Below, piece by piece: positions 33,395 through 59,158 of a stretch of 64,000 nucleotides of DNA (position 1 is its first letter; the number at the start of each line of letters is the position of its first letter). The position numbers were made by a program, and so were the translations under genes. Below the pieces are notes generated by a model that saw only the letters and a program-made list of their open reading frames with translations, was not told where the DNA came from and ran no database searches. Source of the stretch: Naegleria gruberi (Eukaryota); the NCBI GenBank assembly GCA_000004985.1, contig GG738860.1; one strand, 5' to 3'.

Positions 33395-33444
33395 NNNNNN
33401 NNNNNNNNNNNNNNNNNNNNNNNNNNNNNNNNNNNNNNNNNNNN
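33395..33444. other. Assembly gap (50 N) inside the AMMECR1-like gene
   Basis: Run of N in the sequence. Confidence 1.
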
Positions 33445-36359: not shown

Positions 36360-38042
36360 ATGTCAAAGAGACCAGCCGAATCTTCTTCCGAAGATGAAGA
36401 AGAAGATTACTCATCAGAGGAGGAGAATGTACAAGAATCGTCATCAATTAAAACTAAACCAATTCAAGTAAATCCACTCCATGCCGATAAGATTGTTCGA
36501 CAAATATTGATTAAACCCAAATGGCATGCCAAGATTGACAATAAGAGAATTATTAAAAAGTGGAGAGACGAATGTACCAAACAAGGTATATCAAACTCTA
36601 GTTTTGATGTTGGAATTGATATCTTACGTGATATCAAAGCAATTTCCCACTCTGTTCACTATTGTTGTGGATATTGTGGTGCTCAACCAAAGAAGAAACT
36701 ATTCTCTGATCCCGATAGTGATGCAGAAGAATTGAATGAAGATGAAGAACTTTTCGATGGAACTCTTGAAGATAAGAAACCGAGTAAAAAGAAGAAAAAA
36801 GTAATGAGGATTTCATATTCGGACGATGAGGAGTATAATGATGATGATGGTGAAAGAAGATCATATAGGAGGTCAACCAAGTTTTGTCTTTGTCCATGTG
36901 CTCATTGTGCATTTAAGGAACAGAAAGTTGGACCAGATGTATGTGTTGAGAAGGAAGATTGGATTCCAGAAGAGTTGACTGAAAGATTGAAGAAACATTT
37001 GAATTCTTTGGTGGAGAGTACACCTAAGGAGGAATGGGATTGGCATCCTGGTTCAAATCAACAAGTTCTCGATATTATCCATCCTTCATTGTATTGCTAT
37101 TCGAAAGAGCATAGTATTTTGAAAGGGGATACGAAAAAAAAGTTGGTAAAGAATATGAAACAGATTAACACTCAATGGCTACCAACAGATTTTGAAGTTG
37201 ACAAACAAGGAAATGTCAAACCACTTTCCTATATCAATAACATTAATCCAACATCACAGAAAGAATTACAAGATACTATTTGTGAGGTCTTGTCACATTT
37301 AACTCAACCAGTCAAGAAATTTGTCAAGTTCAAAAAGAAGGTTCAAGTAATTGTCAAGGCAGCAAATGTAATTGTCACTCCAGAACAAGGTTTCTATCCA
37401 GGTGGTACTTGGCACTCAGAAGGGGATACTGAGAATATTGTAGCTACTGCCATCTTTTATTATGAATGTCAAAATGTGAAGGAAAGTGTTTTGGAATTTA
37501 GATCTTCATTGGATGAGGAAAGTTTTTTTGGTATTGAGCAAGATAATGTAAAACAAGCTTGGGACAGATGTAATGTAAGTTACCTTAATTCAATATTCAT
37601 CAATTAATTTCTCAAATTTCTTTGAAAGATTCATGATCGTGATAAATTATTCACAATTTTGGGAAATGTCAAAACCACAGAAGGAAAATGCATCTTCTTC
37701 CCAAATACCCATCAACACAGAGTTAGACATTTCTTCCCAAAGGATCCAACTGAGGTTGCCACCAGAAAAATTCTTGTCTTTTTCTTTGTTGATCCAGAAA
37801 AGCCAATTGTTTCAACTTCAAACATTGATAATCAGAGGAGAGATGCTGCCATTTCGAATGCATTCCCTCTCGTTAAAAAGTTACCTTATCCAATTCTTAT
37901 TAAGGAGATTATTCCATTCCTTCCTTTGATGAGTAAGGCACAAGCCGAAGAGGTTCGTGAGCAATTGATGGAGAGTAGAAAGTACAAAAGGGATGAACAA
38001 AATGAATTATACGAAAGAGAATTCTCATTATGTGAACATTAA
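36360..38042 (+). CDS. DUF4246-family protein (fungal-type), 2 exons (36360-37574, 37629-38042)
   Basis: The motifs ...FYPGGTWHSEGDTENIVATAIFYYECQNV... and ...GNVKTTEGKCIFFPNTHQHRVRHFFPKDPT... are characteristic of DUF4246. The intron is GTAAGT...ctttgaaag, with phase verified. Confidence 0.55.
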
Positions 38043-38159: not shown

Positions 38160-39539
38160 ATGATTAGAAGAAGAGTTTCGGATCAATCTTCATCATCTTC
38201 GGGTGCTTCTCCTTCATCATCAAAAACAAGACAACACCAACTATTAAATAATATAACTCTACCAAATACTAATACTAGCAATAGTGTACTACCATCAACA
38301 TCAGCATCTGTTGGATCGACTGCGGAATCGACTGCTAAAATTAATGAAAAAACAAAATATGAATTGAGTACATTGCTACATAAACATTGCTCAAAGGATG
38401 CTGATGCCTATGTTGAGGATGCAATTTTACATAAATTTAAATCAATACTAAAGCAAGGAGATGTCTATGTTGAGACTGCTTATCATCAATTGATAAAATC
38501 GATATTGACAAAGAAGAATTCCACCATTCGATATTTTGCATTGACTTTTATTCATGAAGCAATGAGAAGTAAACGATTTAGAACACTTCTGGCTCAGGAT
38601 TTTAAGGAATTTATTATATTGACAGTGGCAGGTAGTCCAGCAAGTAGGACGGATGCTGCCACTTCGAACGTTAGTAGTGGTAAAGATAATGCATTCCTAA
38701 CGAGGAAAAATTCAAAATATAGTGCTATTTGTGTGCCTGATGTGTTGCCTCCACCTGAGAAATCTGCAATGAAATTGAGAGCAAAGGCATTGGAATATAT
38801 TGAAAATTGGAGTGAAACATATGGTCAATTGTATCCATCTTTTCAAAAAGGATATGAGTATATTGAAAAGAAATTGAGATTTCAATTTCCTAAACTGAGA
38901 GAACATCATCTCAATCAAGTTCAAATTCGAAATGAAAGACAAAGACATAGACAAACTATTTTATTGGGAAAATTTAAGAATATTAAGGATAATGATTTTG
39001 AAAAGATGGCCCACATTGAAGTGTGTCTGAGACAACTCGAGGTTTGTCTCGAACAGATTATTCCATCATTTGAAGAAATGATGAAAATTGCAATTAGAGA
39101 GGACGAATCAGTCAATCCACCTGTCACTATTGATCCAAACTTTAATTATATTGAAACTATAAATTCAACCTCTGATGAGAATATAACCGAGCAAAATAAT
39201 GTACAAAACGATAATTATAATGTAAATATGGATAACTATGAAATAACTGCGGAGGAAAATGAAGAGGATGAATGGGAAGAGGTAACAGGTTATCAAGAGG
39301 AAGAGGATGAAAACTCTGTGCCTCTAGACATTGATGACATGATGAAAGATGTTGGTATCTTCTCGAATGATTATGAGATTACAATTGATTTGAAAGATAT
39401 TTTCCAAGACCAGGAAACTATTGACAATACCACACTCTTTGAAATTTGTAAGGAAAATTTACGTACACTGAGGAAGACATACTTTCCTCAAATTAAGGAA
39501 TGGATGAGAATAATGACTGCTATTAAAAGAACCAGGTGA
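38160..39539 (+). CDS. Hypothetical protein with an N-terminal VHS/CID-like helical domain and an acidic C-terminus
   Basis: Residues ~70-200 (KYELSTLLHKHCSKDADAYVEDAILHKFKSIL...IRYFALTFIHEAMRSKRFRTLLAQDFKEFI) resemble an ENTH/VHS/CID super-helical fold. The C-terminal third is acidic and low complexity. Confidence 0.35.
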   Translation: MIRRRVSDQSSSSSGASPSSSKTRQHQLLNNITLPNTNTSNSVLPSTSASVGSTAESTAKINEKTKYELSTLLHKHCSKDADAYVEDAILHKFKSILKQGDVYVETAYHQLIKSILTKKNSTIRYFALTFIHEAMRSKRFRTLLAQDFKEFIILTVAGSPASRTDAATSNVSSGKDNAFLTRKNSKYSAICVPDVLPPPEKSAMKLRAKALEYIENWSETYGQLYPSFQKGYEYIEKKLRFQFPKLREHHLNQVQIRNERQRHRQTILLGKFKNIKDNDFEKMAHIEVCLRQLEVCLEQIIPSFEEMMKIAIREDESVNPPVTIDPNFNYIETINSTSDENITEQNNVQNDNYNVNMDNYEITAEENEEDEWEEVTGYQEEEDENSVPLDIDDMMKDVGIFSNDYEITIDLKDIFQDQETIDNTTLFEICKENLRTLRKTYFPQIKEWMRIMTAIKRTR

Positions 39540-39763: not shown

Positions 39764-40936
39764 TTATGATTGTTGGGTAGTTGTTTGTTGTTCAGTTGTT
39801 GTGGATGGAGTTGAAGAAACAAAGAATGATTTGATAAGGGCAGCAAAATTGTTGGCCATGTCATCACTTGGGAATTGAGCAAAACCGTGGACAACCTTTG
39901 GAGTTCTGAAATGTTTGAGTGTAGATGTACCATTAGAAGCTTCAGTAACAACACGAGCAAATTCAGCAGCTTCATCTCTCAAAATGTCATATTCAGCAGT
40001 AATGACGAAACCTCCAGGAAGCTTTGAGTAAACCTTAGCTCTAGCATCAGGATCACGAGTATCCAATGCACTCATAACTGAAAAGTATGGATTGGCAGCA
40101 GCTTCTTCATCTGAAACTTGGGTTCCAAGAAGATATCTCCAAAACTTCTCAAGAACTGGACTATCCAAAACAAATCCAAAATCTCCAAATAATTTGTAAG
40201 ATTCAAACTTGGTTCTATTAGCAGGATAATAGTGAAGAGCTGGATAGAAGAGAGCTTGTTGATGAATTTTTGGAATTTGTTCCTTCTTGACAATTTCCTG
40301 ATCTGCCATCAATAACCTAACAAGGGCATGTGAAGTAATATGACCACCAGCAGAGTCACCAGAAACAGTGAGTTGATTAAGATTGGCATTATACTTTTCA
40401 TCCCTCAAATTCTTTCCAACCCAAGTCAATGCATTCAATAAATCATTCAAACAAGCTGGGAAAACATTTTCTGGAGCTTTTCTATATCCAACACTGACAA
40501 CTACAAATCCCTTCTCTGACATTTTTCTACAGAATGAATCATAAACGTCAATATGATTTAAAACCCATCCACCACCATGAGTATAAACTAATACTGGATA
40601 TCCACCTGGACGATGTTGTTTTGGTGTGTAAATTCTCAATAAATATTGTGCCATATCACTTGTTGAATCCATCTCTTTCAAATACAATTCCGATGATGAA
40701 ATATTATATTGAATTTGATGAGTAGTTTTTTGCAATAAACTAGATTCCATAGTAGTATTTCTAACCTTGTACAATTCCTGTCTGAATTTTACAATATCTG
40801 CAAATCTAACAGATAATTTAAATACCATACTCTTATAATATAATTGGAATGATAAATCAGGAAATAAAATCAACGGATACAATGCATAGGCAACAAGCAC
40901 CAACAAGAGTGCCAAAATTCCGAATGCCACCTTCAT
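39764..40936 (-). CDS. Alpha/beta-hydrolase fold-3 esterase/lipase (arylacetamide deacetylase / HSL-like) with an N-terminal membrane anchor. Start assigned to MKVAFGILALLL... (ATG at 40934-40936); the ORF extends further upstream to 41167
   Basis: The oxyanion-hole motif is VLVYTHGGGW. The nucleophile elbow is VSGDSAGGHIT. The N-terminus is a hydrophobic signal-anchor. Confidence 0.8.
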   Translation of the reverse strand: MKVAFGILALLLVLVAYALYPLILFPDLSFQLYYKSMVFKLSVRFADIVKFRQELYKVRNTTMESSLLQKTTHQIQYNISSSELYLKEMDSTSDMAQYLLRIYTPKQHRPGGYPVLVYTHGGGWVLNHIDVYDSFCRKMSEKGFVVVSVGYRKAPENVFPACLNDLLNALTWVGKNLRDEKYNANLNQLTVSGDSAGGHITSHALVRLLMADQEIVKKEQIPKIHQQALFYPALHYYPANRTKFESYKLFGDFGFVLDSPVLEKFWRYLLGTQVSDEEAAANPYFSVMSALDTRDPDARAKVYSKLPGGFVITAEYDILRDEAAEFARVVTEASNGTSTLKHFRTPKVVHGFAQFPSDDMANNFAALIKSFFVSSTPSTTTEQQTTTQQS

Positions 40937-41967
40937 GATAATTCTAATGCTGCTGACCACTAAAACAAAAACACAAACTCCTGGTGTGCAAAGCTGCTGA
41001 TCTTTATATTTTTTTTTTAAAGCGAAAGAGCGAAAACCAAGCGAAAATTTATTATTATTCCCTTGCTCAATGCTCAATAAGAATTTCAATGGTTCAATTA
41101 TTTGGAAATAGAAGGTCAGATTTACATATTGAGGTGATTTTTGTGGAGTAAGGTGGGTGGTGTTCAATATTTTTTGAAGGTTAATTGGCGAAGTATCATC
41201 ATGATGTTGGGACTTGAGATTTTCTTGGTGGAAATTTAGTACATTAAGCGAGTTATCATTGTATCGAGATTGTTTGCAGCCTCTGTGAAATCTATCTCTT
41301 CCATTCCTTGCTGAGTGTATTGCCAGAGGTGAATCTTTCTTTTGAAATTGGAGGTGAAGATAGAATGAAAATCTTGTAATGTCTTAGTGATTGAAGCAGA
41401 GTTGACGAGGTGAGACATTTTCAAAGTGTCAGATTAGAATACTATTTGAGGGAATTGTAATTTTGTTACTATAATCGCCTCCTTTCAACTGAAGAGTTGG
41501 TCCCAATGCAGAAAGAGATCCATATGAATGAACTGACGTAAAGCATGCCTTTGGCTTCTGAATACTATCTAGAGTAGAAATTGTTTGGTTTAAATATTTC
41601 ACTTGGCAAATCATTCATCAGAGGATAGTCAAACTCTGAACATCCCATTTGAATAATGCACATCATCTGGAACTAGATTATTCCACATTTTCCTCAAATT
41701 TCCACGTGCAAATTCACCAGGAAATCGTAAAAAGCTGTTATTTTGTTCCCTAAGCCTTTTCACCAAGTTTTCATTACCAATACACCAATCTACCATCACA
41801 CTCCTCGACTTGAAACTCTGTGAATTGTCTTGATAAAAGTAAACATTCGGATCACCTTTTGGCTCATCCTCGGAGAGGGTTTGTTCTTCATAAATATTCT
41901 CGATAAAATCTCTTCCAATTCTTGTTCCTCCAATTCCATTTTGTTTTTGAAATATTTATTAATATTT

Positions 41968-43029
41968 TTACAATAATTTCAAATGTTTTGTAACAGTATC
42001 AATTAATTCTACAGGAGCTGGACCAATTCCAAGTACTGTTTTCGATCCAGCTTCAATTTGAGTTCTTCCAGCATCAACAACAAGATAACAATTCAAACGT
42101 TGTTGTAAACATTTTTGAAATAAATTATCCAATTCCTTATCACTATCTGCTTTAAGACAAATCTTAGCTTCAGCTGTTACTTCCCAGTCATGTAAATATT
42201 GTTTCCATTGTTGCATATCTTGGTTGGTGATTTGTGTTGGCTCTGAATTTGATGATGAAAATAATAATTGAGTTTGAGCAAAATAGGAGGTGTTTTCATA
42301 GAGAATATTTCTATAGAGACCGACAGCTGCATGACAACATTGAGCAGCAATCTTTCCTTTACCCATATTCAAATCATTTCTAACAACAAATACCATCTTG
42401 TAAGCCTTTGATGTCGGGAATGATTTCATCAAATATTCTTGATATTTTTGATNNNNNNNNNNNNNNNNNNNNNNNNNNNNNNNNNNNNNNNNNNNNNNNN
42501 NNNNNNNNNNNNNNNNNNNNNNNNNNNNNNNNNNNNNNNNNNNNNNNNNNNNNNNNNNNNNNNNNNNNNNNNNNNNNNNNNNNNNNNNNNNNNNNNNNNN
42601 NNNNNNNNNNNNNNNNNNNNNNNNNNNNNNNNNNNNNNNNNNNNNNNNNNNNNNNNNNNNNNNNNNNNNNNNNNNNNNNNNNNNNNNNNNNNNNNNNNNN
42701 NNNNNNNNNNNNNNNNNNNNNNNNNNNNNNNNNNNNNNNNNNNNNNNNNNNNNNNNNNNNNNNNNNNNNNNNNNNNNNNNNNNNNNNNNNNNNNNNNNNN
42801 NNNNNNNNNNNNNNNNNNNNNNNNNNNNNNNNNNNNNNNNNNNNNNNNNNNNNNNNNNNNNNNNNNNNNNNNNNNNNNNNNNNNNNNNNNNNNNNNNNNN
42901 NNNNNNNNNNNNNNNNNNNNNNNNNNNNNNNNNNNNNNNNNNNTGTGTTCTTGTGATGACATTTTTTAATGAGTTGGAATTATTTTGAAAATAATCACAT
43001 GAGGAATAAATTGCAGAATTGAACATCAA
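41968..43029 (-). CDS. PTH2: Peptidyl-tRNA hydrolase 2 (PTH2). The 5' part of the gene is interrupted by the 490-N assembly gap (42454-42943), so the N-terminus and the start are unreliable
   Basis: The C-terminal catalytic domain is KMVFVVRNDLNMGKGKIAAQCCHAAVG...CYLVVDAGRTQIEAGSKTVLGIGPAPVELIDTVTKHLKLL, a PTH2 signature. Confidence 0.8.
   Translation of the reverse strand: MMFNSAIYSSCDYFQNNSNSLKNVITRTXXXXXXXXXXXXXXXXXXXXXXXXXXXXXXXXXXXXXXXXXXXXXXXXXXXXXXXXXXXXXXXXXXXXXXXXXXXXXXXXXXXXXXXXXXXXXXXXXXXXXXXXXXXXXXXXXXXXXXXXXXXXXXXXXXXXXXXXXXXXXXXXXXXXXXXXXXXXXXXXXXXXXQKYQEYLMKSFPTSKAYKMVFVVRNDLNMGKGKIAAQCCHAAVGLYRNILYENTSYFAQTQLLFSSSNSEPTQITNQDMQQWKQYLHDWEVTAEAKICLKADSDKELDNLFQKCLQQRLNCYLVVDAGRTQIEAGSKTVLGIGPAPVELIDTVTKHLKLL
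42454..42943. other. Assembly gap (490 N) inside the PTH2 gene. The poly-X ORFs in this region are artefacts
   Basis: Run of N in the sequence. Confidence 1.
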
Positions 43030-43290: not shown

Positions 43291-45741
43291 TTGAACATGG
43301 CCAGAACCAAGCAAACAGCGAGAAAATCGACGGGTGGCAAAGCTCCAAGAAAACAATTGGCTTACAAAGCTAGAAAAGCAAACAGACCTTTCCCTTCCCG
43401 TTCGTTGGCAGGTCCTTTTTCTGATGAGGAAAAAGCAATTTTTGTGAATGGTTTGAAAAGAGCCTTCGATGGAAGTGAAGAATCATCAAAATTTGATGTA
43501 AATACCTATGAAGGAGCTTCACAATTAGTCAAATTTTGGATTTTCCAAGATCAAAAAAGAAGAAAATTGAAACCAATGGTAGAGGAAGCTAAATGGAATG
43601 GCAGCTTTGAATTGCTTCACAATCTTCCTATGGATATCAAGTATGAAATTATTGATTTTATTCCAACCTTTTCCTTGAGAGATTTTTACAAAATCAAGTT
43701 AGACGAATTCACTGAACAGATGAAGCTGGCACAAGTTGAAGATATTTCTAAAATTGTATGCAAAGGACTGAATTTGTTTGAAACCTTTACAAAGAGATCT
43801 TTTCAAAATTTGTACTATTCAGATCCTCTCTATAGAAACTATTACAAGAAGAGACTAATTAACAGAGAATATGCATTAAGAATGAAACAAAGGATATTGA
43901 AGTTGGATGAGTTTGATATTACAGATATTGATTATGATATTGGTTCTGTAAAGAAAGACAAACTATTGCACTTCTTTTCGTTGGTTAAGGAGATGAATGA
44001 AATTGACACTGTTGACTTTAATGATGTGGTCATTCACAGAAATATTGAAAAAATCAAGTCATTGGTAAATGGAACCACCACAAAAAGAAATGAAGATGAT
44101 TACGAGTCACCTTGTGAAGAACCAATGGATGATACTGATTCAATTAGTAATGAGCCTAATGTAACTGTATCATTTGATGAAATGGAGCTACTTTCTGAGG
44201 AAGAAATGAAAAAGTTAGAATCAAAATCTATTGCCATACTGCAGGAATCAGAAAGAGGATATTATAATACTCGTAATTACAATAAGTTTAACAAGCAAGA
44301 TAGTAAATCTTTTAGAAAGCAAGCGATGTATTCGTATGCTATACCATTGGAACTAATAGGAACTGGTGCTATTCCACAAGAACAAAATTTTACTCGTGCC
44401 TTTTCTCACGAAGAGATTATGGAAAGGCTTAAGGAGTTTATTGGAATTAATTCATCCATTAAGAAACTTTCTGTCAGAGGTCTAGATGTCGGCTTTACAA
44501 ACACTGCCATGGACATCTGTAAAGGAATAACAGATCTTTCAATACTTTTATGTGAGTACGTGGATTATTTTGAGTGCTTTAAAGAAGTCCTACCAAATCT
44601 CAACAAGCTGACTATTAATGGAGTTTCTTCTCATTACTCAATTAGTTTTATGGAAAGCTTTATGATTGAGGAATATATTCAACCTAACTGTGTTGTTGAT
44701 TTAGGGTTTGCTACAGGCACTGACACATATTTCTCGGATTTTTTAAATCGTTATGTTGAAGATCAAAACGGTAACAAGACTCCATTGAAAATTACCTCAA
44801 AACTACTCTCAACTGAAAACGTAACCGAATATGCCGACTTTTTATTGAGGTTTATAGAAGGAGTATCTTTCGGCCAATTGTTTTCTGATTTTGATATGAA
44901 AAAGAAATTGGTAGATTACTTGGTAATTGAAGTTGGCATTCCAATTGAATGGCTTACGCTTACCACAAGTGGAGATACTATAATTACAGAATACTTAGCT
45001 TATCTTTCAAATGTTTATCAAAATGGGGCAATTAATTGTCCAAGCTCTATTATGTTACGAGCAGGCTTGATTCCAAATAATATAGCCAATGAATTGGTTT
45101 TTTCTAAATATGAATGGGATGTTGTTGAGTTATGTTTAGATTATTTAAAAAAGAGAGATGATATTGATGACTTTGTTTTGACCCTTAGAAATTTGCTCGT
45201 TTTCTATGTGTGTGATAGAAGTGATTCTCCACTCTTTGAACTATATTGTTACATTAAGAAGAATATTCCAGAAAGTCAATTCAAAGAAATTTTAAAGCCT
45301 ATCAAATGTATCATTCCAGAAGGCTACAAAGAAAAGAACAATGAAACCTTGCATACAGTTTCTATTCCCATCATTTGCTTCCCATTCTCAAATTACCAAT
45401 TCGCTAAAGCTATCGTGGATGATATGACAGACGAAGATTTGAAATTTGTTAATGAGCTTGGTGACTCATGTCTGCACATTTATTCTAGACATGACCATAG
45501 TATTTGGAGTAGAATAGTTGAAAGAGTACCAGAGGTAGTCAAACTCAGCAACCCTGAGGGAGTAACACCTTTACATATTCATACTACCAATATCCAGTCA
45601 TACATATTTGTATTAGACTTGTTGACAAGATTTGGTGCTGACCCAAATGCAAAAGATATTGAAGGAAGAAAAGCTATTGGTGAATTTTTTATATTTGAGA
45701 ATGGTATTTTGAAAGTTAACAACAGATCAATGGAATATTAG
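43291..45741 (+). CDS. F-box-like / ankyrin-repeat protein (816 aa) whose N-terminus mimics the histone H3 tail
   Basis: Residues 3-29 are [27 protein letters not shown], against H3 [28 protein letters not shown]. The F-box-like motif is [21 protein letters not shown]. The C-terminal ankyrin repeats include ...[11 protein letters not shown]...[20 protein letters not shown]. It is a single uninterrupted ORF. Confidence 0.75.
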   Translation: [816 protein letters not shown]

Positions 45742-45834: not shown

Positions 45835-48800
45835 TTATACAATAACAGGAGGAAGTCTCTCTCTTGAAATTGGACGAGACAGAGCTCGCTTCTCTGCCTC
45901 ATATTCTTCTATTTTCTCTCTAAGGGATTGAATCTTGTGTCGTTGCATTTCGATTTCCTTCAAAGCTTGTTCTAATGATGTAATACCACCAAGGTCCTTT
46001 AGTTCCAAAGATGATGAAGTTATATCGGTGCTCTTCTTTCCAATCTTGGACTCGAGCTCCTTGTCTTTAAGTTTTTGCTTTAGAGATCTAACTTCCTTTC
46101 TCAGGTCATTAATTTCCTTGATGAGGACAACATTTTCATTCATGATTCTCTTATTATCTGACTTGGAGGTTTCTGTTGCTTTAACAAGCTTCTTCTTGAG
46201 TGATTCGACTGTTTTTTCGAGGTAGGATCTTTGTCTTTCATATTCCTTTTGAATGTCAAAGTCCATTTCTTGAGTAGTAATCTTTTCAGAGACGTAGGTT
46301 TGGTAAAGCTTGGTAACCTCTTCTTTAAGCTCCTTTGGCTCTTGAATTAATTGTGCAACCTTGTAAATATCTGCACGAATTCTCTTCAATAGAGTGTCAT
46401 TATCTTTGACTTTAAAGTTCAGTCTTTGAATTTCCTTGACTCTTCCATCAATCTTGAGTTCGAGATCCTTGATTGAGAGAATTAATCTATCATTCTTCTC
46501 CTTAGCCTTTTCCAATTCTTTTCTCATCTTCTTGGATTGCTTTCTTAAACTGGTAATTTCTTCCTTACTTGGTTTGATTTGTTCTTGGAGAGTTGAAATC
46601 TTGTATTCTAAAACAAATCTGAATTTTTCAAGTTCTTGGTTTTGTCTCTTCAACTTGAAAATTCTCTTTTCCTTGTCAATAATGGTTTCTTCTCTTTCCT
46701 TATTTTCCTCACTCATCTTTTGAATATCCTCTTGATATTGCTTATTGAGATTTTCTGCTCTTTGCTTCTTTTCTTCCAACTTTTCAATAAGTTCTAGTTT
46801 TTGTTTCAAAGTCTTTTGTAAGGCAATAAATCTGTCATTCCACTTGTTAGCTTCACTCTTGGCTTCATTGTAGCTGTCGTTCATCTTTAACAACTTCTTT
46901 TCATACATTTCTTTCAAGATCTTGATTTCCTTATCTTGATCCTCTTCCATTTGATTTTTAATTTCGGAAAATTTCTTGTCCAACTCGACCTTCTCATCTT
47001 GTAATGTAACAATAGATCCATCTTTTCTCTTAATTTCATCTTCATATTCTTCCGTAATATCTGTGAGCTCTCTCATGTGCATTTCCTCCTTATTCTTGGA
47101 ATCATCTAGGATTTGCTTCTTCTCCTTCTCTCTGTCTCTGTTGAGTTCGGAAATTTGTTCAAGAGAATTGTGCAATCTCTCGTTAAAGTCTTGTTCCAGA
47201 GCTTTGATTTTTTCTCTGTGTTTTTCTATCAACTCATCGATTTTCTTCTCGTACTCATCTGTTACACTTTTCTTCTCTTGCAAAATACTTTGAATTTCCT
47301 CTTGTTTCTTTGTAAGTTCAAGATTGAAGCTTTTTGCTTGTTCTCTGAGAGCATTATTGAATTCAATTTCCTTTTTCTTTTGCTCGTATTCATTGTCTGA
47401 CTTTAATTCTGCAACTTTTGCTTGAAGCTCAGCAATTGTGGTATTCTTTTCTTCCCATTCTGCTCCTGAAATCAAAATTTCTTCCGAATATTTTGTTTCC
47501 TTCTTAGTTTTACCTCCATCTCTGTCTCTTATTTCCACAATACCCAGCATACCATCTTCACCTGAACTGAATAAGAAAGAATCATCCCAAGCTTTAGAAA
47601 TTCTTGTCACAGGACCTGAGTGCAAGTATAGTTTGTCTTCTATATACTCCAGATTTGGAAATGAATGCACAGTAATAGCACCAGTCTCTAGACCACCAAA
47701 TATCATCTTTAATCCTTCAGAGTACTCCATACAAACCAATGTATTATCTCCCAAATCATATTCTGTTTGTGGATTACCTTCACTGAAGCCCTTAATCTTG
47801 TTATCTGATCCAGTAACAAAAATACTCTTTCCGTCTGTGGCGACAGATGTGTATCCAACATTCTTATTAGTATGGTGAATGGTTCTCTTCTCAGTTTTTA
47901 CAACATATTCGTACACAGCACCATCCATACCAACACTCAGTACTCTAGTATCATCATCAGTCCATTGAAGAGCTCTGATTTTACCATTGTGGCCCCTGAG
48001 GGCAGATATTAATTGGAGAGTGTAGGTATTGTAAACGTTGATTACGTTACCGTGAGCTGCTGCAAAGTAATGACCACCATTACTGAACTTTACCTCACCA
48101 CAATTTCTTACCAAGAAAGATTTCTGCTCTCTAATATCATCTCCCAAAATATCCATAAATCTCAGTTTATCTTGGAAACCAACAACCAAGTGCAAACCAC
48201 TAGGGTGAATTGCTATTGAGTAGGCCTCGGCTGGGAATTGTTTTACAATATTCAGTGTATTATCCAAGTAGTTCCATACTCTGACAGTCTTATCTGTACT
48301 GCAGGTCGCAATAATTGGCTTTCTAATAGCAGTATCCATTCCCGTTATGGCCTTTGAGTGGAATGGAATTGTGAGATATTCAAATTTAATGTCATCTTCC
48401 TTTTGTAAAATATCAGAACTACTGATATTCAAAGTAAATATTTGAGCTGAACTTGTTGAAAGGACCAAGTTTTCATTTGAAGGACTCAAATTAAAATTGA
48501 GAATTTTGTGATCGAGATAGGTTTCGCTCAGTTCCTTATATTGAGTGCTATTCATAACTCGTAAAGTCTTTGATCTTGAATACATTTCCTTTTCATCGGC
48601 CGATTTTTCAAATATTGAAACAACTCCATTCTCACCTCCACATACAAACCCAGTTCCATAAGGAATGAGTGCTGTTATACTAAGTCCATCTGATGGAGAT
48701 GAGGGTAAAATAAATTTAAATTCATTCTTTTCAACGAAAAATAAATCTCCGTTAGCATTTGAAACAACTAACTTCTCTTCATCTAACCAGGTATGAGACA

Positions 48801-49467
48801 GATAAGGCTCATGATCTCTTTTGCCAATACCGTCTGTCACAACTTTGAGTTTTTCTCTATCATCTAGGGTTAATAATTTAAATACACCATTACCAGTAAC
48901 ACAAATAGTTTTGCTATCTGGACTAATTGAACATTGAAAGACTGGATCTCCATCCACTGAAGATGTACAAATCGTATCAACTATCCTAGTTTTACCTTCC
49001 ATAGACCACAAAACTAAATTATATTCTGGACCTCCTCCTTGGGCTACCAAATATTTACCATCCAATGAGAAAGCCATACAAACAAATTCATGAGATCCAA
49101 CACCTGGATGAGAAATCGTCTTTTTGACTGTGTATGTTGTTGTTTCATAGAGTTTAATAAGAGGTGGGTTTTTTTTGAGGTCAGTGATCTTTACAGTTGA
49201 TGAAAGTGGTTTTGTTTTTTCTGCAACAGCCAAATATTTTCTATTAGGTGCTAGACAAAGAGCTGATATTCCTTCCGTATTATCGGACCCTGTTTTAATC
49301 TTCCTCACTCCATTTGTTTGATGAAAAACTAGGCATCTACCTGAAGGGTAAACGACACATGTATCGTTGACATTATCTCTAATGTACCAGATATTATTTT
49401 TTACCTTTGCATTAAGACCAAACACATTTTTAAGTGAGAGGATGTGGTTTTGAAATGGTTCAGTCAT
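45835..49467 (-). CDS. WD40-repeat (N-terminal ~650 aa, likely double propeller) plus long coiled-coil (C-terminal ~550 aa) protein, with a CFAP57/WDR65-like architecture
   Basis: Multiple WD-like blades (…GHNGKIRALQWTDDDTRVLSVGMDGAVYEY…, …ATCSTDKTVRVWNY…). The C-terminal half is continuous E/K/L/Q heptads. Single 1210-aa ORF. Confidence 0.5.
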   Translation of the reverse strand: MTEPFQNHILSLKNVFGLNAKVKNNIWYIRDNVNDTCVVYPSGRCLVFHQTNGVRKIKTGSDNTEGISALCLAPNRKYLAVAEKTKPLSSTVKITDLKKNPPLIKLYETTTYTVKKTISHPGVGSHEFVCMAFSLDGKYLVAQGGGPEYNLVLWSMEGKTRIVDTICTSSVDGDPVFQCSISPDSKTICVTGNGVFKLLTLDDREKLKVVTDGIGKRDHEPYLSHTWLDEEKLVVSNANGDLFFVEKNEFKFILPSSPSDGLSITALIPYGTGFVCGGENGVVSIFEKSADEKEMYSRSKTLRVMNSTQYKELSETYLDHKILNFNLSPSNENLVLSTSSAQIFTLNISSSDILQKEDDIKFEYLTIPFHSKAITGMDTAIRKPIIATCSTDKTVRVWNYLDNTLNIVKQFPAEAYSIAIHPSGLHLVVGFQDKLRFMDILGDDIREQKSFLVRNCGEVKFSNGGHYFAAAHGNVINVYNTYTLQLISALRGHNGKIRALQWTDDDTRVLSVGMDGAVYEYVVKTEKRTIHHTNKNVGYTSVATDGKSIFVTGSDNKIKGFSEGNPQTEYDLGDNTLVCMEYSEGLKMIFGGLETGAITVHSFPNLEYIEDKLYLHSGPVTRISKAWDDSFLFSSGEDGMLGIVEIRDRDGGKTKKETKYSEEILISGAEWEEKNTTIAELQAKVAELKSDNEYEQKKKEIEFNNALREQAKSFNLELTKKQEEIQSILQEKKSVTDEYEKKIDELIEKHREKIKALEQDFNERLHNSLEQISELNRDREKEKKQILDDSKNKEEMHMRELTDITEEYEDEIKRKDGSIVTLQDEKVELDKKFSEIKNQMEEDQDKEIKILKEMYEKKLLKMNDSYNEAKSEANKWNDRFIALQKTLKQKLELIEKLEEKKQRAENLNKQYQEDIQKMSEENKEREETIIDKEKRIFKLKRQNQELEKFRFVLEYKISTLQEQIKPSKEEITSLRKQSKKMRKELEKAKEKNDRLILSIKDLELKIDGRVKEIQRLNFKVKDNDTLLKRIRADIYKVAQLIQEPKELKEEVTKLYQTYVSEKITTQEMDFDIQKEYERQRSYLEKTVESLKKKLVKATETSKSDNKRIMNENVVLIKEINDLRKEVRSLKQKLKDKELESKIGKKSTDITSSSLELKDLGGITSLEQALKEIEMQRHKIQSLREKIEEYEAEKRALSRPISRERLPPVIV

Positions 49468-50049: not shown

Positions 50050-52470
50050 ATGGATGCCCGTGTTGCAGTAACGAAAGGTACGTTAAGAGAGAGATGAATT
50101 TAAGAATATTAAGGCCTCTGTTCATACATCATCAATATAATACCATTTTAATATCGGACTTGAATAAATAGATGATTTTGAGTATGGACAAATATTGGGT
50201 GAAGGTGCTTTTGGCCAAGTTCGTTTGTGTGTCCATAAAGCAACAGAACTTCAATACGCAGCTAAAGTATTGAAGAAGGAAAAACTTATTAAGGCCAAAC
50301 AAACGAAATATGTCAAATCAGAGAAGGAAATATTATTGGAGATGGATCATCCTAACATTTCAAAATTGTGTTATACCTTCACTGATGAAAAGAAGTTGTA
50401 CTTTGTGTTGGAACTTATTTCTGGAGGAGAATTATTTGAGTGTATTATAAAGAGCAATGTAGCAAATGATAATAAGGAATTGAAAAAAGTTGCTCAATTT
50501 TACATGGCTCAAATGTTGGAAGCACTGATCTATATTCACAGTCTTAATATTTGTCACAGAGATCTTAAACCCGAAAATCTAATGCTTACAGGATCTGGTA
50601 ATTTAAAATTGGTGGATTTTGGTATTGCAAAGAAAATTGATAGACCAGGTCCGAATACATTCTGGTAAGTTAAAATATGAAAATCTTGAAAATCTTAATT
50701 TCCAATAGTGGTACTGCTGAATATTTGGCGTAAGTTTTCTTATCAACTTGATTATATTGATGATTTCTCAATAGACCCGAAGTTGTCAGTAATAATGAAT
50801 ATGGTATTATGGTAGATTGGTGGTCTTATGGTTGTATTATTTACGAATTATTTTGTGGAAAGAGTCCTTTTTACAGCTCTAGTATGGCTGTAACTTGTCA
50901 AAAGATTGTTGATAGAGACATCTATTGGCCAAAGACAATGCCACCAGATGCCAAGGATTTAATTAATGGACTTCTCACTACAGACCCAGAAAAGAGAATT
51001 GGAGGTCCTGAATTAAGAAAGCATCCATTTTTCAAAGGAATTGATTGGAAGAATTTAAACAAGGCTGACCCACCTCTGGTTCCAGATCTTTTGTTCAATG
51101 ATGAAGATAGAGGTGTTGGTATTAAAATGTCCATGTTTGAACCTAGAGTGGATCAGGAAGACGTCATGATAAATGCTCACGTTTTCAAATCGAGATCAAG
51201 CAGTAAAGGATCAACGCAAGATGCAATCAAGAGAAGCAACTTGCTCAGAAAAATGTACCCTCAATTGTGTGCTCTCCCAGAGAGACCAAGACCAATCAAT
51301 TCAAGAATTATTCAAAACTCTGAAAATGTTCCAAAATCCAATGATAAGGTAGAAGAGGAGGAGGTAGATGATAGGGGTGATACTCAATCGGAATGTACTA
51401 GTGTCAATGAGGTCAGTAAGAAGGTCGTTATGATTCAAAATGCTGTCGGTTTGAAAACTCCTGTTATCAGGATTGCATTTGGAGAAGGTGACAAGATGGC
51501 TTGTAGTAGTAGTTTCCAAGCAAAAACATTTGGAATTGGAATTGACAGTGAATCTAATGTCATTTTCAATGAATATAAGAATTTATCAACTGTATCCACA
51601 TGTAATTACTTGGAATATTCTCCAAATGGTGAAACACTTGCCTTCGACATGCAAAGACATATTGGTTTGTTGGACTTGAAGAATCCAAAGAAAAAACCAA
51701 GACAATTGGTGGGGCATTCCCTTCCAATTACAAAGGTTTCTTGGCATCCAAAGAGCCACATGTTGGCTGCCGGAGGAAGAGATAACCTGGTGTACTTGTG
51801 GAATGTTGACAGCTCCAAACCAAAGCTTGAGGCTCAAATGGATTCACACAAATCATATATTTCAGATCTTCAATTCCATGCAAAAGATCATCTACTTGCC
51901 AGTGGAAGTGGAGATTTCAAAGTTGTATTCTACGACATTCAAAGTCAGAGAATTGTACAAAAGTACAGTTACCATGAAGATGCAATTCTTGGTGTGAGGT
52001 GGAATCCTAAATTCCCTGACATTTTTGTTTCCTGGTCTTTGGATAGAAGACTAATCTTCTCCGACCGCAGAACTTTCAAACCTATTAAGGTTCTAGCTCA
52101 TAATAGACCTGTGATTCATGCTCAATGGTCACCTGATGGATCAATGCTTGCCACCTGCAGCAAAGATTCCATTAGAATTTGGTCCTATCCATCAATTACC
52201 TCCTCTTTCGTCTACACCAATTCTGAAAGTCTTCCTGGTGAACATCTCTCTTTCGAATGTAATAGCAATTATTTGGCAGTATTGAAATGCAGAGATGATA
52301 CCTCTCCTTCAGTCATTGATACCTCTTCCTTTTCTTTTGTTTCTCCAAATCCACATCCTCAAAACTCACACAAACTCCCAATTACTAGTCTGCAATGGAG
52401 TAATAACAGACCATTCCTTGCCACTGGTTCCTATGATAAGTCTGTTATTTTGTGGGGTGTTGATGAATAA
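50050..52470 (+). CDS. PDK1-like AGC-family Ser/Thr protein kinase fused to a C-terminal WD40 beta-propeller, 4 exons (50050-50077, 50172-50664, 50709-50729, 50775-52470)
   Basis: Kinase motifs are GEGAFGQV, AAKVLKK, HRDLKPEN, DFG and NTFCGTAEYLAPE, the last split across a 21-nt micro-exon. The kinase aligns closely to PDK1 (DFxxGxILGEGxF...YF.L....GEL...HRDLKPEN...DFG...F.GTA.Y..PE...D.W..GCIIY.L..G..PF). WD40 repeats follow in the same ORF (…LAAGGRDNLVYLWNV…, …LASGSGDFKVVFYDIQS…, …LATGSYDKSVILWGV…). Confidence 0.8.
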
Positions 52471-52587: not shown

Positions 52588-53853
52588 TTAGAATACACCA
52601 AATTTATATTGAGGAGGTATTGGAATGTCGTAACCCAATTCCTTCGCAGCTCTGATTGGCCAATATGGATCACCCAAATCCTTTCTTCCAATAAATACTA
52701 AATCAGCTTTTCCTTCTGTCAATATTTGATTGGCTTGTACTGGTTCAGTAATTTTACCAACAGCTGCCACAGGCATTACTTGTCTAACCCTTTCTGCATA
52801 TTTCACTTGATACATTGGAAATGCCATGAGAGCTTGGGATAGTAATCTTGATGAATTACCTCCTGATGAACAGTCAATTATATCAACTCCCAAATCTTTC
52901 AAAATTTCAGCTAACCTCACACTATCCTCAATATCCCAACCATCACTCACATACTCATCACATGATATTCTTACAAATAGAGGCATTGTCTCTGGAATGC
53001 AACTTCTTACTCGACTAACAATTTCAGTTAGAATTCTTATACGATTCTCAAAAGAACCACCAAATTTGTCTTTTCTCTTATTAGATGTTGGTGATAAGAA
53101 GGAATTAATCATATAACCATGAGCTGCATGTATCTCAATCACATCAAAACCAGCCAAGACAGCTCTCTTAGCAGCAGCTACAAAGTCTTCAATCAATTCT
53201 TCCACCTCATCTTCAGTCAACTCTCTCGGAACTCTATGTGATTCATCAAATGCAATTGGAGAAGGTCCAACCACTTCCCATCCTCCTTCTTCATCACTTA
53301 ATGCAGTTCTTCCTAGGGCTTCCCACAATGCACGTGTTGAACCTTTTCTCCCAGAATGAGCCAACTGAATACCAATATGTCCACCTTGTTCATGAGCTAA
53401 ATCCGTAATCTGTTTCAACATTTCCACATGTTCGTCCTTGTAAATTCCCAAACAATGAGGAGTAATTCTTCCAATTTCAGAAACAGCAGATGCCTCCACT
53501 ATAAACAAGCCAGCACCACCTACCACTCTACTGCCAATATGTTGCACATGCCACAGATTAGCAAAACCATCCTTGCTAGAATAGGTACACATTGGAGAAA
53601 CTACAATTCTATTCTTCAAAGTCAATCCTCTAATTGTGTAAGGTTGAAATAACATTGGAGTGTCTGAGGAGGGCATGATTGCCTTTTTGGCTTCTGCCAA
53701 TCCTGTTAGAGCTTGAATAATAACACCAACCCAGTTGACCATGATGACGAAGATGTGAAGAGAATTTTTTCTAATAGTTTTTTCATGCTTGCTGAATATT
53801 TGTTGGACTTGAACAAAAGTGGTGCGAATTAATGCGAAGAACACCCCGTCCAA
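52588..53853 (-). CDS. NADH:flavin oxidoreductase / NADPH dehydrogenase, Old Yellow Enzyme family of the YqjM (bacterial/class III) type. The true start is probably an internal Met (about 53742 or 53664)
   Basis: ...LFQPYTIRGLTLKNRIVVSPMCTYSS... has the C/Y of YqjM-type OYE, against P/T in classical OYE. Other motifs are HSGRKGS and IEIHAAHGYMINSFLSP. The C-terminal region binds the FMN phosphate (GRKDLGDPYW). Confidence 0.8.
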   Translation of the reverse strand: MDGVFFALIRTTFVQVQQIFSKHEKTIRKNSLHIFVIMVNWVGVIIQALTGLAEAKKAIMPSSDTPMLFQPYTIRGLTLKNRIVVSPMCTYSSKDGFANLWHVQHIGSRVVGGAGLFIVEASAVSEIGRITPHCLGIYKDEHVEMLKQITDLAHEQGGHIGIQLAHSGRKGSTRALWEALGRTALSDEEGGWEVVGPSPIAFDESHRVPRELTEDEVEELIEDFVAAAKRAVLAGFDVIEIHAAHGYMINSFLSPTSNKRKDKFGGSFENRIRILTEIVSRVRSCIPETMPLFVRISCDEYVSDGWDIEDSVRLAEILKDLGVDIIDCSSGGNSSRLLSQALMAFPMYQVKYAERVRQVMPVAAVGKITEPVQANQILTEGKADLVFIGRKDLGDPYWPIRAAKELGYDIPIPPQYKFGVF

Positions 53854-54015: not shown

Positions 54016-55926
54016 ATGTTTAGACAAGCTTGTTCTTCATTGCTCTCATCATCTTTGCCAACAAAAACAACAAGAGCAAATTATTATTACAATAGGAGAT
54101 TGAATAATTCCTCTCTATTGAAATCCATCATTCAATACAATACCTTCTCTACATGTCTCTCACAAAATAATGCCTCGGAGAAGAAAACCAAATCATCAGC
54201 AGCAGCAACAACAACAGGAGGATTAATTACAACACCAATTTATTATGTAAATGGACCACCACATATTGGACATTTATTTACAACTATCCTCTCCGATTCC
54301 ATCTATTTGTACCATAAACAATTGAAGAATCGTCATGATATGATCTTTTCCACTGGTACTGATGAGCATGGTAGTAAAGTGCAAAGAACAGCCATTAAAA
54401 ATCTTCCCAATCAAAATACTTTGGATGATGAAACTATTAACAAGTCGTGTGTTGAATTTTGTGAGAAAATTTCTGAAACATTCAAGACCATGATGAAGGA
54501 TTTTAATATTCAATATACTCACTATTTAAGAACAAGTGCCACAAGGGAACATAGAGAAACAGTGGAAAGAGTTTGGAAGGAATTGGAAAAACGAGGAGAT
54601 ATTTATTTGGGAGAATATCAGGGATGGTATTGTACTACTGATGAAGCTTTCACAACAGATATTGAACAAGTTAAAATTACCAATGAAAAGGGAGAGGAAG
54701 AATTAGTGACATTGAGTAAAGCTTCAGGAAATAGATGTGAATTCGTGACTGAAAAGAATTATAAATTCAGATTGAGCAAATATATGGATAGAATTCAACA
54801 ATGGTTGGAAGAAAATCCAAATACAGTCAAACCAAAGGAAAGATACAATGAATTGATGGAATTAATTAAGAAGGAGAAGGAAAGAAGTCCAGAATCTCTC
54901 GATTTAAGTATTTCTAGAACAAGAGATCGTGTACAGTGGGGTATTCCAGTTCCAGATGATTCGGAACATACAATTTATGTTTGGCTTGATGCTTTGACAA
55001 ATTATCTTACTGCTGGTTCCACTCTCGCTAATGAATCACTCAATTGGCCACCAACTGTCCAAATTATTGGAAAAGACATTCTCAAATTCCATGGTATTTA
55101 CTGGCCTGCTTTTTTGATGGCTCTTGGAAAGGAACTTCCTGAAACCATTCTTGTTCACTCATATTGGCTTGTCAATGATGTAAAAATGTCCAAGTCTTTA
55201 GGCAATGTTGTATCACCATATGATTTGTTGAATCAAACTGGTGTTGAACATGACTTGTTACGTTACTATTTATTGAGTGAAGCTGTACTCAGTAATGATA
55301 GTAGTTTCAGTATGGTTAGATTCCCTGTTAAGGTGAATGAATTGGCTGATATTTTCGGAAATTTATTGACCAGAGCTTTTAATAAGAAATTCCATGCTGA
55401 AGAGGGAGAAATTCAATACAGAAATCTTCAATTTGATTGCCCTAATGCCGAACAAAATCCAAATCAAACTGCTCAAGAACTTATTGAATTACTCAATGAT
55501 TTACAAGAACAAGTTAGAAATGCCTATGAAGAAAGATGTGAAGTGAGATTTGCCAATCTTGCAGCCACAAAGATTTTAAAGAAGTGTAATCAATTATTTG
55601 ATGAAGTTAAACCATGGATTCTTGTTAAGGATGCAGTGGCTAATGCTCAACAAATTGAGGAGTTAATGTTTCTTGTTGCTGAAACTTTGAGAAACTGTTC
55701 TATTGCCCTTTACCCAGTTTTACCTCACAAGATGAATCAATCATTGAGCTTTTTCAATCAGTCCACACCATTGTTGGAAGATATTGGTTTCTGTAAGAAG
55801 GGTACTTCTATTCGCGTCAAATCCAATCCAGAAATCCTTTTCAAAAAGATAGAGGAAGTAAAACAACAAGAACATTCATCAAGAGGAAGAGGAAAGAACA
55901 AGGAAAAGAATGCTGAAAAGAAATAA
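54016..55926 (+). CDS. Methionyl-tRNA synthetase, mitochondrial type (single-exon, 636 aa, N-terminal presequence)
   Basis: The HIGH motif is PHIGHLFTTILSD. The KMSKS motif is VKMSKSLGNVVSP. The N-terminus MFRQACSSLLSSSLPTKTTRANYYYNRRL is presequence-like. Confidence 0.9.
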   Translation: MFRQACSSLLSSSLPTKTTRANYYYNRRLNNSSLLKSIIQYNTFSTCLSQNNASEKKTKSSAAATTTGGLITTPIYYVNGPPHIGHLFTTILSDSIYLYHKQLKNRHDMIFSTGTDEHGSKVQRTAIKNLPNQNTLDDETINKSCVEFCEKISETFKTMMKDFNIQYTHYLRTSATREHRETVERVWKELEKRGDIYLGEYQGWYCTTDEAFTTDIEQVKITNEKGEEELVTLSKASGNRCEFVTEKNYKFRLSKYMDRIQQWLEENPNTVKPKERYNELMELIKKEKERSPESLDLSISRTRDRVQWGIPVPDDSEHTIYVWLDALTNYLTAGSTLANESLNWPPTVQIIGKDILKFHGIYWPAFLMALGKELPETILVHSYWLVNDVKMSKSLGNVVSPYDLLNQTGVEHDLLRYYLLSEAVLSNDSSFSMVRFPVKVNELADIFGNLLTRAFNKKFHAEEGEIQYRNLQFDCPNAEQNPNQTAQELIELLNDLQEQVRNAYEERCEVRFANLAATKILKKCNQLFDEVKPWILVKDAVANAQQIEELMFLVAETLRNCSIALYPVLPHKMNQSLSFFNQSTPLLEDIGFCKKGTSIRVKSNPEILFKKIEEVKQQEHSSRGRGKNKEKNAEKK

Positions 55927-58900: not shown

Positions 58901-59158
58901 TACATTATTTGGTATATTTTCTAATATCAAATCCAAGACAGCATAAGCTGCTCCTCTAATTCGATCATCAGTAGCATGATTCAAGTATTCTCCCAATAAT
59001 TTAATTCCTTCATTGATCGTTAATGTTCCATTCACTACAAATTCTATTAATTTACTTTTAAGAGACTCCTTGTTGGTGTTCGGAAGAGTTGGATTGCACA
59101 AACTATCAATCAGTGAAATCAATTCTTGTTCTCCATTGCTGTTGGATGATGTTTGCAT
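55946..59158 (-). CDS. MMS19: MMS19 (cytosolic Fe-S assembly targeting complex / nucleotide excision repair protein) homolog, 1070 aa HEAT-repeat protein
   Basis: ...FLNGFIQSLEGERDPGNLLYCFNLIP...LFDITSCYFPITYTPPANDTRGITREDLSRSLK... aligns to human MMS19 FTFGFIQVMDGEKDPRNLLVAFRIV...LFEVTSCYFPIDFTPPPNDPHGIQREDLILSLR. The C-terminus ...LDDKKRKVRKAAVKCRNSYFVL aligns to ...LDDKKRLVRKEAVSARGEWFLL. Confidence 0.9.
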   Translation of the reverse strand: MQTSSNSNGEQELISLIDSLCNPTLPNTNKESLKSKLIEFVVNGTLTINEGIKLLGEYLNHATDDRIRGAAYAVLDLILENIPNNVGSETDETKQTTQLKLVASLLRFIGDRFYDFDCLATLLPCLFSLFKKWSSYISSEQAINVVLQFFENVNIQSIGSTSGVAHATKTRSLCFEWFSLLADRFPSIVRTIDFLNGFIQSLEGERDPGNLLYCFNLIPKVIAIFDDSELSSKILSAVSDDLFDITSCYFPITYTPPANDTRGITREDLSRSLKLCFGCNKFFAPTLFPFLLEKLSSDLVDTKLETLDYLCYCIEKFGEVNSREYLTEIWSYIKAESVKTNSMDVMKKCYESITKIARIVIIPNDPSNKPFDIPNIEAILRTALLELKSKEPKFAAQYARMIYACAVPTFEISMMVFNRVMPELVATLSESDTKDKLYGSLLMITQLLQAVAEQKGENQLPEVVFNLISQVQTVFLSIYEEEFSKNDKEMILVMVETISRIAIFRIPSTLLRDIYVSRILLKSYGEENKSFSLLHATSLEEYKERVIKDIAWIYKYAPDIVSEDILVPLFGALYGCENKSEHINRILSNISAVGKVCPSMTPSITHRLFERIESIPISESHYEHERVKVFETITSLDVSLIPAHDKVSYIQRIVKMSVTDSSSQMVDDSDTMDCSDSECAHVHHNQGNFSFLTLLLGRSLENELQQVVLDSVLQYANSVPSTGLKNFISVLSAIVIACRPTVGMGNLITMTDSLLQMALKGEQPSQVTKCIAQLVGSVLNKLPLDSTEFQQLITICNATVFDAFSQMLTVYNGDSESAERYIEMVSWILKGLVMRGAYVPHADRYSSLLCGSLVFEYNSSKVNKKVAEGFLIAIGEDETSIHKENHAIIQVLYKQRFFATNVRKLMDSINTVTQPHIIGSILLALSNLIHNVPTKVILSEVKNIFPIVLKFLEMRQILIEQDNNSEDLLYAAIKTTLTLLSDAKEEMSVHLSSIVPILLDTCKFKKSQAVRILSVEALLELTNGYKYYEIYPLKKDIIKGLEACLDDKKRKVRKAAVKCRNSYFVLSNNQ

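Follow-up and report, generated by a model that had tools for sequence, protein, structure and literature searches.

Background and comparison with described systems

To our knowledge, histone mimicry is known only in the form of short convergent motifs of 4-8 residues. Influenza NS1 (ARSK), SARS-CoV-2 ORF8 (ARKS), the automethylation site of G9a/GLP (ARKT) and LIG1 K126 are short mimics that copy the ARKS/ARTK core of histone H3, and this core is written or read by histone enzymes. In the SNAG-domain repressors (SNAI1, GFI1, INSM1) the N-terminal peptide fills the H3-tail site of LSD1 and thereby recruits LSD1. Among the F-box proteins, KDM2A/B (FBXL11/10) are linked to chromatin, and F-box and ankyrin sequences occur together in Legionella AnkB and in the poxvirus PRANC proteins. 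The H3TMs (VRK1, PCLAF/PAF15, BCL11A/B, SALL, FOG, MEF2 and others) are non-histone proteins with an N-terminal M-Z-R-x-K sequence, and after removal of the Met these N-termini engage PHD fingers, NuRD/RBBP4 or UHRF1 in the way H3 does (Chen et al. 2021, PMC8166343). Here we describe a gene in a 64,000-nucleotide stretch of Naegleria gruberi DNA (assembly GCA_000004985.1, contig GG738860.1; the whole stretch is called the window below) of which the product, the window protein, starts with a near-perfect copy of histone H3's N-terminal tail.

Like the H3TMs, the window protein and 18 of 49 representatives of its family fit the N-terminal sequence rule. Unlike the H3TMs, in which about 4-8 residues are involved, the window protein has 21 consecutive residues identical to H3 (up to 28 in Willaertia magna P0007), the identity of the tail is kept across genera, and the carrier is a putative ubiquitin-ligase adaptor instead of a transcription factor or a kinase. 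The short mimics arose by convergence, span 4-6 residues and are found internally or at the C-terminus, whereas the tail of the window protein is complete, presumably homologous to that of H3 and in its native N-terminal position. SNAG peptides have little identity to H3 and bring a demethylase to DNA-bound factors, whereas the carrier here would be a ligase adaptor. The family resembles F-box proteins in having an LPx(D/E)(I/L)xxxI(I/L)xF(I/L)P … (R/K)L(I/V)xK motif plus repeat domains, and resembles many F-box families in its fast expansion and divergence. Unlike in known F-boxes, the F-box-like motif forms part of a larger helical module and has an insert between its halves, and whereas KDM2 proteins carry chromatin reader and eraser domains, the family described here carries a histone ligand. 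With H3 itself the window protein shares the N-terminal residues and the Met-Ala start context, but it is 814 aa long and has no histone fold, alphaN helix or nucleosome-forming region. An earlier note on this DNA, made from the sequence alone, had claimed that the tail is far longer than those of known mimics, and with 21-28 residues against 4-8 this holds. The fusion differs in kind from all mimics that we found, being carried by a putative ligase adaptor and defining a multigene family. The searchable literature yielded no account of F-box or ankyrin proteins with an H3 tail, whether from Naegleria or from other organisms.

The H3 tail and the gene that carries it

Based on translation of the window, the segment 43297-43380, which runs from ATG GCC AGA ACC AAG to AGA AAA GCA, was found to encode H3 residues 1-21 without a single difference (21/21) at the N terminus of the window protein. 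The remainder of the copy differs from H3 by T22Y, by the deletion of one Ala (A24/25) and by S28A, with K23, R26 and K27 retained, in agreement with the near-perfect H3 tail described in the earlier note. Both the ARTK and the ARKS core are present, and the copy covers the H3 sites K4, K9/S10, K14, R17, K18 and K23. A phmmer search with the first 60 aa against PDB sequences returned H3 chains with E = 5.6e-9, and tblastn of H3 against the window gave E = 4e-11, with an aligned part of residues 1-31 only. The histone-fold family PF00125 gave no match at E<=1 in the window protein. Both the Pfam result and the limited tblastn alignment thus bear out the earlier view that the rest of the protein is not a histone fold.

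The sequence M-A-R-T-K, encoded at 43297-43311, fits the H3TM sequence rule, with a small residue at position 2 and, in the mature numbering, Arg 2 and Lys 4. Met-Ala N-termini lose their Met, yielding a free A1 as in H3. The window protein would be expected to lose its Met in the same way and, as proposed earlier, to expose an ARTK N-terminus.

The window DNA is eukaryotic and gene-dense, with a G+C content of about 34%. The ATG at 43297 is the sole ATG able to open the open reading frame (ORF). At position 43291 there is a TTG, which is a start codon in the bacterial code only, and a start at this position ('MNM') was rejected as an artefact of the bacterial code used by the ORF lister. Consequently, the 816-aa ORF of the earlier note becomes a product of 814 aa, and its choice of a 'second ATG' falls away, as there is a single one. 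The next Met after this ATG is residue 94, past the family-invariant residues Y71, V78, W81, I82 and D85. If the conserved N-terminal module to which these residues belong is translated, the H3 tail must be translated along with it.

The corresponding database entry, 'predicted protein [Naegleria gruberi]' (P0001), has the identical start but is only 550 aa long and ends with …KFARFLCV. This public model leaves the ORF at 44923, the codon after …VDYL, where GTAATT was treated as a splice donor. The uninterrupted ORF adds 275 residues, ankyrin repeats included, which align to the N. gruberi paralog P0124 (E 2e-38). Because these C-terminal 275 residues are homologous to paralogs, the true product is the protein of 814 aa and the database protein is truncated.

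A fusion of this kind could also be an artefact of assembly or annotation, in which the 5' fragment of an H3 gene has been joined to an unrelated gene; the distance from an upstream assembly gap (42453-42943) to the ATG is 354 bp, and the gene model in the public database is imperfect. However, the gap lies away from the junction of tail and body, these two form one uninterrupted ORF without a gap, and the same fusion recurs on further N. gruberi scaffolds as well as in N. fowleri, N. lovaniensis and an independent assembly of W. magna. The mis-join near 43380 that had been considered in the earlier note fails because W. magna has tail and conserved body on continuous genomic sequence (locus L002, and locus L001 with an intron only). 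Misassembly was therefore rejected, and we regard an artefact as practically negligible.

Conservation and age of the tail

A profile of the N-terminal module, from which the tail was left out, was searched against 1.84 billion representative proteins and found about 45 family clusters. Thirty clusters were looked up, and all the named ones belonged to N. gruberi, N. fowleri, N. lovaniensis or W. magna, with environmental contigs making up the remainder. Judged by these matches, the family is lineage-specific, so far comprising Naegleria, Willaertia magna and environmental contigs. The closest relatives, the paralogs and orthologs P0002-P0009 and P0121, each have an H3-like tail at the start and the same kind of body as the window protein, and tail-bearing members were found both in Naegleria species and in W. 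magna. The N-terminus of N. gruberi P0002 reads MARTKVTARGLRKRS…, and that of N. gruberi P0121 is H3-like. In W. magna, P0003-P0006 have an H3-like N-terminus, P0007 has exact H3 1-28 and P0009 is identical to H3 at 18/22 positions. The 18 starts that fit the rule among the 49 non-redundant representatives have the form M-[A/S/V]-R-[T/I]-[K/R], and several representatives have H3 1-22 or 1-28 intact.

The comparison of codons covers the window gene and three loci of W. magna, among them one pair of recent duplicates. Over the first 22 codons the window gene and W. magna P0003/P0004 differ by 8-10 synonymous and 0 non-synonymous changes, and 7-8 of the 11 four-fold-degenerate codons are different. 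The bodies of the compared Naegleria and Willaertia proteins have only 24-30% identity. As the tails differ only synonymously while the bodies have diverged to this extent, the comparison indicates strong purifying selection on the tail at the protein level, which is strictest on the first residues. Among the 18 tailed starts, identity to H3 was highest for R2 (18), T3 (17), A1 (16) and R8 (15), followed by K9 (9), K14 (6) and K23 (5), and conservation thus declines away from the N-terminus.

In a neighbour-joining tree of the N-terminal module, H3-like tails were present in at least four deep clades in which Naegleria and Willaertia are mixed. Close paralogs show a graded decay of the tail by point changes and indels, for example P0124 (MARTRGSIRNNGYPDVTRMAPRK), which argues for vertical descent. 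The degenerate tails are rich in K/R and have few acidic residues, with 7-12 K/R in the first 30 residues of many members. The simplest reading of these sequences is that an ancestor carried the full H3 tail before the split of Naegleria and Willaertia, and that several lineages hold it at H3-grade constraint, the others having let it decay or having lost it. A recent exon capture, as suggested in the earlier note, does not agree with a fusion in at least four deep clades, nor with synonymous sites that are heavily diverged in the absence of amino-acid changes.

The conservation could in principle be borrowed, if the tail were a non-functional by-product that is recopied from H3 genes by conversion or exon capture and conserved only via its donor. 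H3 is encoded by multiple gene copies that share one protein sequence, and in one W. magna lineage an intron directly after the ATG could mark the junction. However, two paralogs in the same W. magna genome differ at 7 of 22 tail codons, all synonymously, so that a recent homogenisation of the tails by a single donor did not take place. Furthermore, the codons of the tail (AGA, AAA) resemble those of the gene body, the graded decay seen in P0124 and others indicates vertical descent, and the tail always occupies the same in-frame position in at least four clades. Based on these points we consider a by-product highly improbable. No H3 gene was detected in the window, by tblastn of H3, or in the fetched W. 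magna loci.

Body of the protein and the F-box-like module

The predicted layout (Table 1) consists of a helical N-terminal module with a split F-box-like motif, a variable middle, a family-specific helical domain and ankyrin repeats. The linker behind the tail has one low-confidence helix at residues 43-58, and the AlphaFold pLDDT is <50 for residues 1-49 and 51-66. In the signature helix that follows, W81 and I82 are nearly invariant among 51 family members. In the middle of the protein the earlier note had seen a leucine-rich region. This region has beta-alpha repeats in the AlphaFold model, in which short helices separate the strands 390-396, 413-419 and 437-444, all modelled with low confidence, but there is no Pfam match to leucine-rich repeats (LRR) in the window protein, and the hints of tropomodulin and COI1 given by Foldseek were non-significant. 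The C-terminal ankyrin repeats, also named in the earlier note, are weak in the single sequence, with Pfam matches to Ank (E 0.007, residues 755-787) and Ank_2 (E 0.039, residues 703-787) that are both under the gathering score. They are clear in the whole-protein family profile, which matched ankyrin-repeat chains of the PDB with E 1.7e-22 at profile positions 663-776, and relatives match Ank_2/Ank_5. By these profile matches the repeats are present. The full-length AlphaFold model, made from an alignment of 8 sequences, was poor (pLDDT 46.8), and Foldseek on it was uninformative.

The family motif in the N-terminal module reads L-P-x-D-(I/L)-K-(Y/F)-E-I-I-x-F-I-P-T-x-S … H-K-M-R-L-I-x-K-E-(F/Y). 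In its first half L110, I118, P123 and T124 are nearly invariant, and in its second half, which is equivalent to the 'lrrVcKrW' helix of F-boxes, this applies to K184 and R186. The insertion that splits the two halves is missing or short in some relatives. Such short-insert relatives reached 20.6 bits against the Pfam F-box (cut-off 20.5, E 3.9e-4) and, for another one, 16.4 bits. When the insert was removed in silico, PF00646 was the top recurrent family and was matched by 11 of 33 cores at E<=1. Weak Pfam matches to PRANC were also seen among the family members. The N-module profiles (A6, A7) gave single chance-level matches only against PDB sequences (E~0.9), and no structural neighbours of the module were detected. 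On balance, the alignments and profile matches favour F-box function and membership of an SCF (Skp1-Cullin-F-box) complex, which we hold to be somewhat probable.

The tail precedes the F-box-like module and is joined to it by a flexible linker, a position that would also suit a handle for turnover or a pseudosubstrate, in which the lysine-rich tail accepts ubiquitin, by autoubiquitination or otherwise, or another mark and sets the lifetime of the adaptor. Autoubiquitination commonly regulates F-box proteins, and K14, K18 and K23 of H3 are natural ubiquitin acceptors for UHRF1. However, any lysine-rich segment would serve this purpose, and the exact identity to H3 and the conserved A-R-T are left unexplained, which makes a turnover handle quite improbable.

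A possible ligand for H3-tail factors on a probable ligase adaptor

We consider the best explanation to be that the tail serves as a portable ligand and substrate for the H3-tail machinery and is linked to a probable SCF adaptor, with a probability of roughly 0.5. The family would then consist of probable SCF-type ubiquitin-ligase substrate adaptors. Removal of the initiator Met, with Ala at position 2, would create a free H3-like N-terminal end, displayed on a linker of some 50 residues that is poorly conserved and, by prediction, disordered for the most part. PHD fingers and WD40 proteins could bind the free A1-R2-T3-K4 end, K4, K9/S10, K14 and K18 could be the targets of readers and writers, and the karyopherin that imports H3 is probably among its partners. 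In this way the tail may tether H3-tail factors to the ligase, as a bait for recruitment. Alternatively, the same marks as on chromatin may set the location and activity of the adaptor. That H3 factors bind or modify the tail, and in which direction the effect runs (bait or regulation), is inferred here. As a further step, the tail may be fully modifiable and be written, erased and read by the enzymes that act on chromatin, and the proteins may be soluble 'histone-code' receivers, which couple the state of chromatin modifiers to targeted proteolysis or deliver readers and writers for ubiquitination, and we put this forward only tentatively.

Several observations weigh against a docking tail on an SCF adaptor. 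The Pfam F-box families (PF00646/PF12937) had no match in the window protein at E<=1, and the family profiles retrieved no F-box protein from the PDB sequences. The hhalign comparison, which gave a probability of 59.6% and E 8.9e-5 in the expected register, was made against classical F-boxes that we had compiled by hand. The F-box-like motif of the earlier note is therefore present and reaches the threshold in short-insert relatives, but for the window protein itself it is backed by neither a Pfam nor a structural match. Many family members are without any tail, and for this reason the tail must be accessory to the core function of the family. Conversion from several different H3 donor genes, although improbable, could in principle be behind the likeness of the tails. 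Finally, the decayed tails are still basic, which is equally well explained by nuclear import.

This last point leads to the alternative that the tail acts in import only, as a nuclear localisation signal (NLS) for the H3 karyopherin of the Kap123/Importin-4 type, with no docking of readers or writers. Residues 1-28 of H3 are an NLS, and the PDB matches obtained with phmmer included a 28-aa H3 peptide chain, 5ve8_C, which we take to be part of a Kap123-H3 complex; K14 and K23 are presumably the H3 lysines used by Kap123. The FG-rich stretches in several relatives and the WGR domain also point to nuclear biology. However, an NLS requires neither an exact match of 22 residues nor a position at the extreme N-terminus, conservation peaks at A1-R2-T3 and not at K14 and K23, and the absence of amino-acid changes next to 8-10 synonymous ones across genera amounts to H3-grade constraint. 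In view of this, import as the sole role of the tail seems unlikely, although it is the strongest competitor of the docking explanation.

The earlier note had offered a decoy or a substrate-recruiting module. Docking or bait, as in the explanation preferred here, is the better version of that proposal, whereas a stoichiometric decoy or sponge that draws H3 modifiers or readers off chromatin fits less well. The complete H3 1-21 should compete for the same sites, and viral mimics such as NS1 act partly by competition. However, the adaptor would be of low abundance, and nucleosomal H3 exceeds any regulatory adaptor by orders of magnitude; moreover, the F-box-like module, the ankyrin repeats and the many diverged paralogs are superfluous for a decoy. 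We therefore judge a decoy to be very improbable.

With a docking tail as the preferred reading, the family has a bearing on several questions. Since before the divergence of Naegleria and Willaertia, non-histone proteins have retained a complete, letter-perfect H3 tail of 21-28 residues. The forces that hold the H3 tail fixed would then apply to the peptide as such, away from the nucleosome, which touches on the long-standing question of the reason for its strong conservation. The family also provides a natural experiment, with graded tails (ARTK only; ARKS…GGKAPRK only; 1-14; 1-22; 1-28) that could be used to map which partners need which segment. If the F-box assignment holds, this would be the first ubiquitin-ligase adaptor with a histone ligand rather than a histone reader, and if the 'histone-code' receiver reading is true, such a system of H3-tail fusions, natural and under selection, would have no known precedent. 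In addition, KSTGGKAPR-type peptides from these proteins would be indistinguishable from H3 peptides in proteomics of post-translational histone modifications in Naegleria.

Features of the window and neighbouring genes

Table 1. Positions of the gene, its parts and its neighbours in the window
Feature	Position	Strand	Basis or remark
Intron-less complete coding sequence, 814 aa + stop	43297..45741	+	ORF list; 100% identity to P0001
In-frame upstream stop TAA	43255..43257	+	translation; no ATG in frame from there up to 43297
H3 N-terminal tail copy, protein residues 2-28	43300..43380	+	translation, phmmer, tblastn
Linker, residues 29-75, poorly conserved, mostly disordered (predicted)	43381..43521	+	alignment; AlphaFold
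Family-signature helix, 15 aa	43522..43566	+	alignment; AlphaFold N-module helix, pLDDT ~90
F-box-like first half, 22 aa	43609..43674	+	alignment; hhalign to LPxE(L/I)xxxI(F/L)xxL part of F-box
Helical insertion, ~49 aa, splitting the F-box-like motif	43675..43821	+	alignment; AlphaFold model
F-box-like second half, 30 aa	43822..43911	+	alignment; P0130 segment = F-box model positions 19-35; hhalign
Acidic low-complexity middle, ~residues 260-370, poorly conserved	44074..44406	+	alignment; pLDDT 22-32
Possible LRR-like beta-alpha repeats, residues 371-500, unproven	44407..44796	+	AlphaFold, low confidence
Family-specific helical domain with Y-x-x-Y-L-x-N-x-Y-Q-x-G motif	44884..45381	+	alignments; pLDDT 55-85
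C-terminal ankyrin repeats, ~residues 700-790	45394..45666	+	Pfam; family profile against PDB
Assembly gap, 491 N	42453..42943	.	upstream of gene, coding sequence untouched
Second assembly gap, 50 N	33395-33444		
DUF4246	36360-37607		
UVSSA_N-containing protein	38160-39539		
Alpha/beta hydrolase	39764-41167	minus	
PTH2, readable part	41968-42450	minus	
1210-aa double WD40 propeller + long coiled coil, EML/CFAP-like	45835-49467	minus	
Kinase-tail + WD40	50809-52470		
Old-yellow-enzyme-type oxidoreductase	52588-53853	minus	
Methionyl-tRNA synthetase	54016-55926		
MMS19	55946-59158	minus	

The neighbours of the H3-tail gene (36360-59158) are ordinary eukaryotic housekeeping genes. The larger gap interrupts the stretch between PTH2 and the promoter side of the H3-tail gene, and the mechanical ORFs across this gap are artefacts. 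In W. magna, the family loci are near genes (L003 1-1276 and 6618-8191; L001 21885-22908) for proteins with F-box-like, Kelch/FBX42-type propeller and DNMT1-RFD domains; this proximity to putative ubiquitin and chromatin genes may be coincidental.

Further observations on relatives

A profile of the whole trimmed body (A2) was swamped by low-complexity words and returned 2 proteins, and it revealed the paralog P0121. A scan for the family pattern in viral (IMG/VR) and JGI metagenome contigs gave no relatives, and within the limits of such a pattern scan there was no sign of an origin from giant viruses.

The W. magna genes P0003 (L001 10001-10058) and P0005 (L003 ~3001-3056) have a 55-bp GT-AG intron directly after the ATG and before GCT AGA ACC…, and P0004 (L002) has no intron at this place. 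L001 and L003 (JBEGDK010000065.1) represent a recent inverted duplication, and an RCC1-like neighbour is part of it.

P0121 (N. gruberi), P0134 (N. lovaniensis) and P0143 (environmental) form one clade in which ARKS(T/I/V)GGKAPRK (H3 7-18) is kept, and their models start with MMFTR…, MIRQACRK… or MYTRHVARK…, not with MARTK. Either the ARTK end was lost in this clade or the starts were mis-modelled, for example by a missed intron after the ATG, of the kind seen in W. magna.

P0183 and P0255 of N. lovaniensis, with the tail MARTRQTARKGICGKAPRAQ…, have a WGR domain (PARP-type, E 8e-16) at residues 227-299, located between the F-box-like module and the C-terminal repeats. Both are named NAD(+) ADP-ribosyltransferase in UniRef, and no catalytic domain was seen in them. 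The presence of WGR in tail-bearing members is a hint of nuclear or DNA-linked biology.

FG-rich, nucleoporin-like stretches were observed between the N-terminal module and the repeats of P0009, P0003, P0121, P0139, P0141 and P0243, at the place where the window protein has its acidic segment. In P0009, residues ~310-400 consist of repeats (FGGKAPIATTS…GGKGPLATKAPMKT) with weak likeness to H3 12-28 (BLASTP E 0.003 in a single comparison), and these may be internal repeats derived from the tail.

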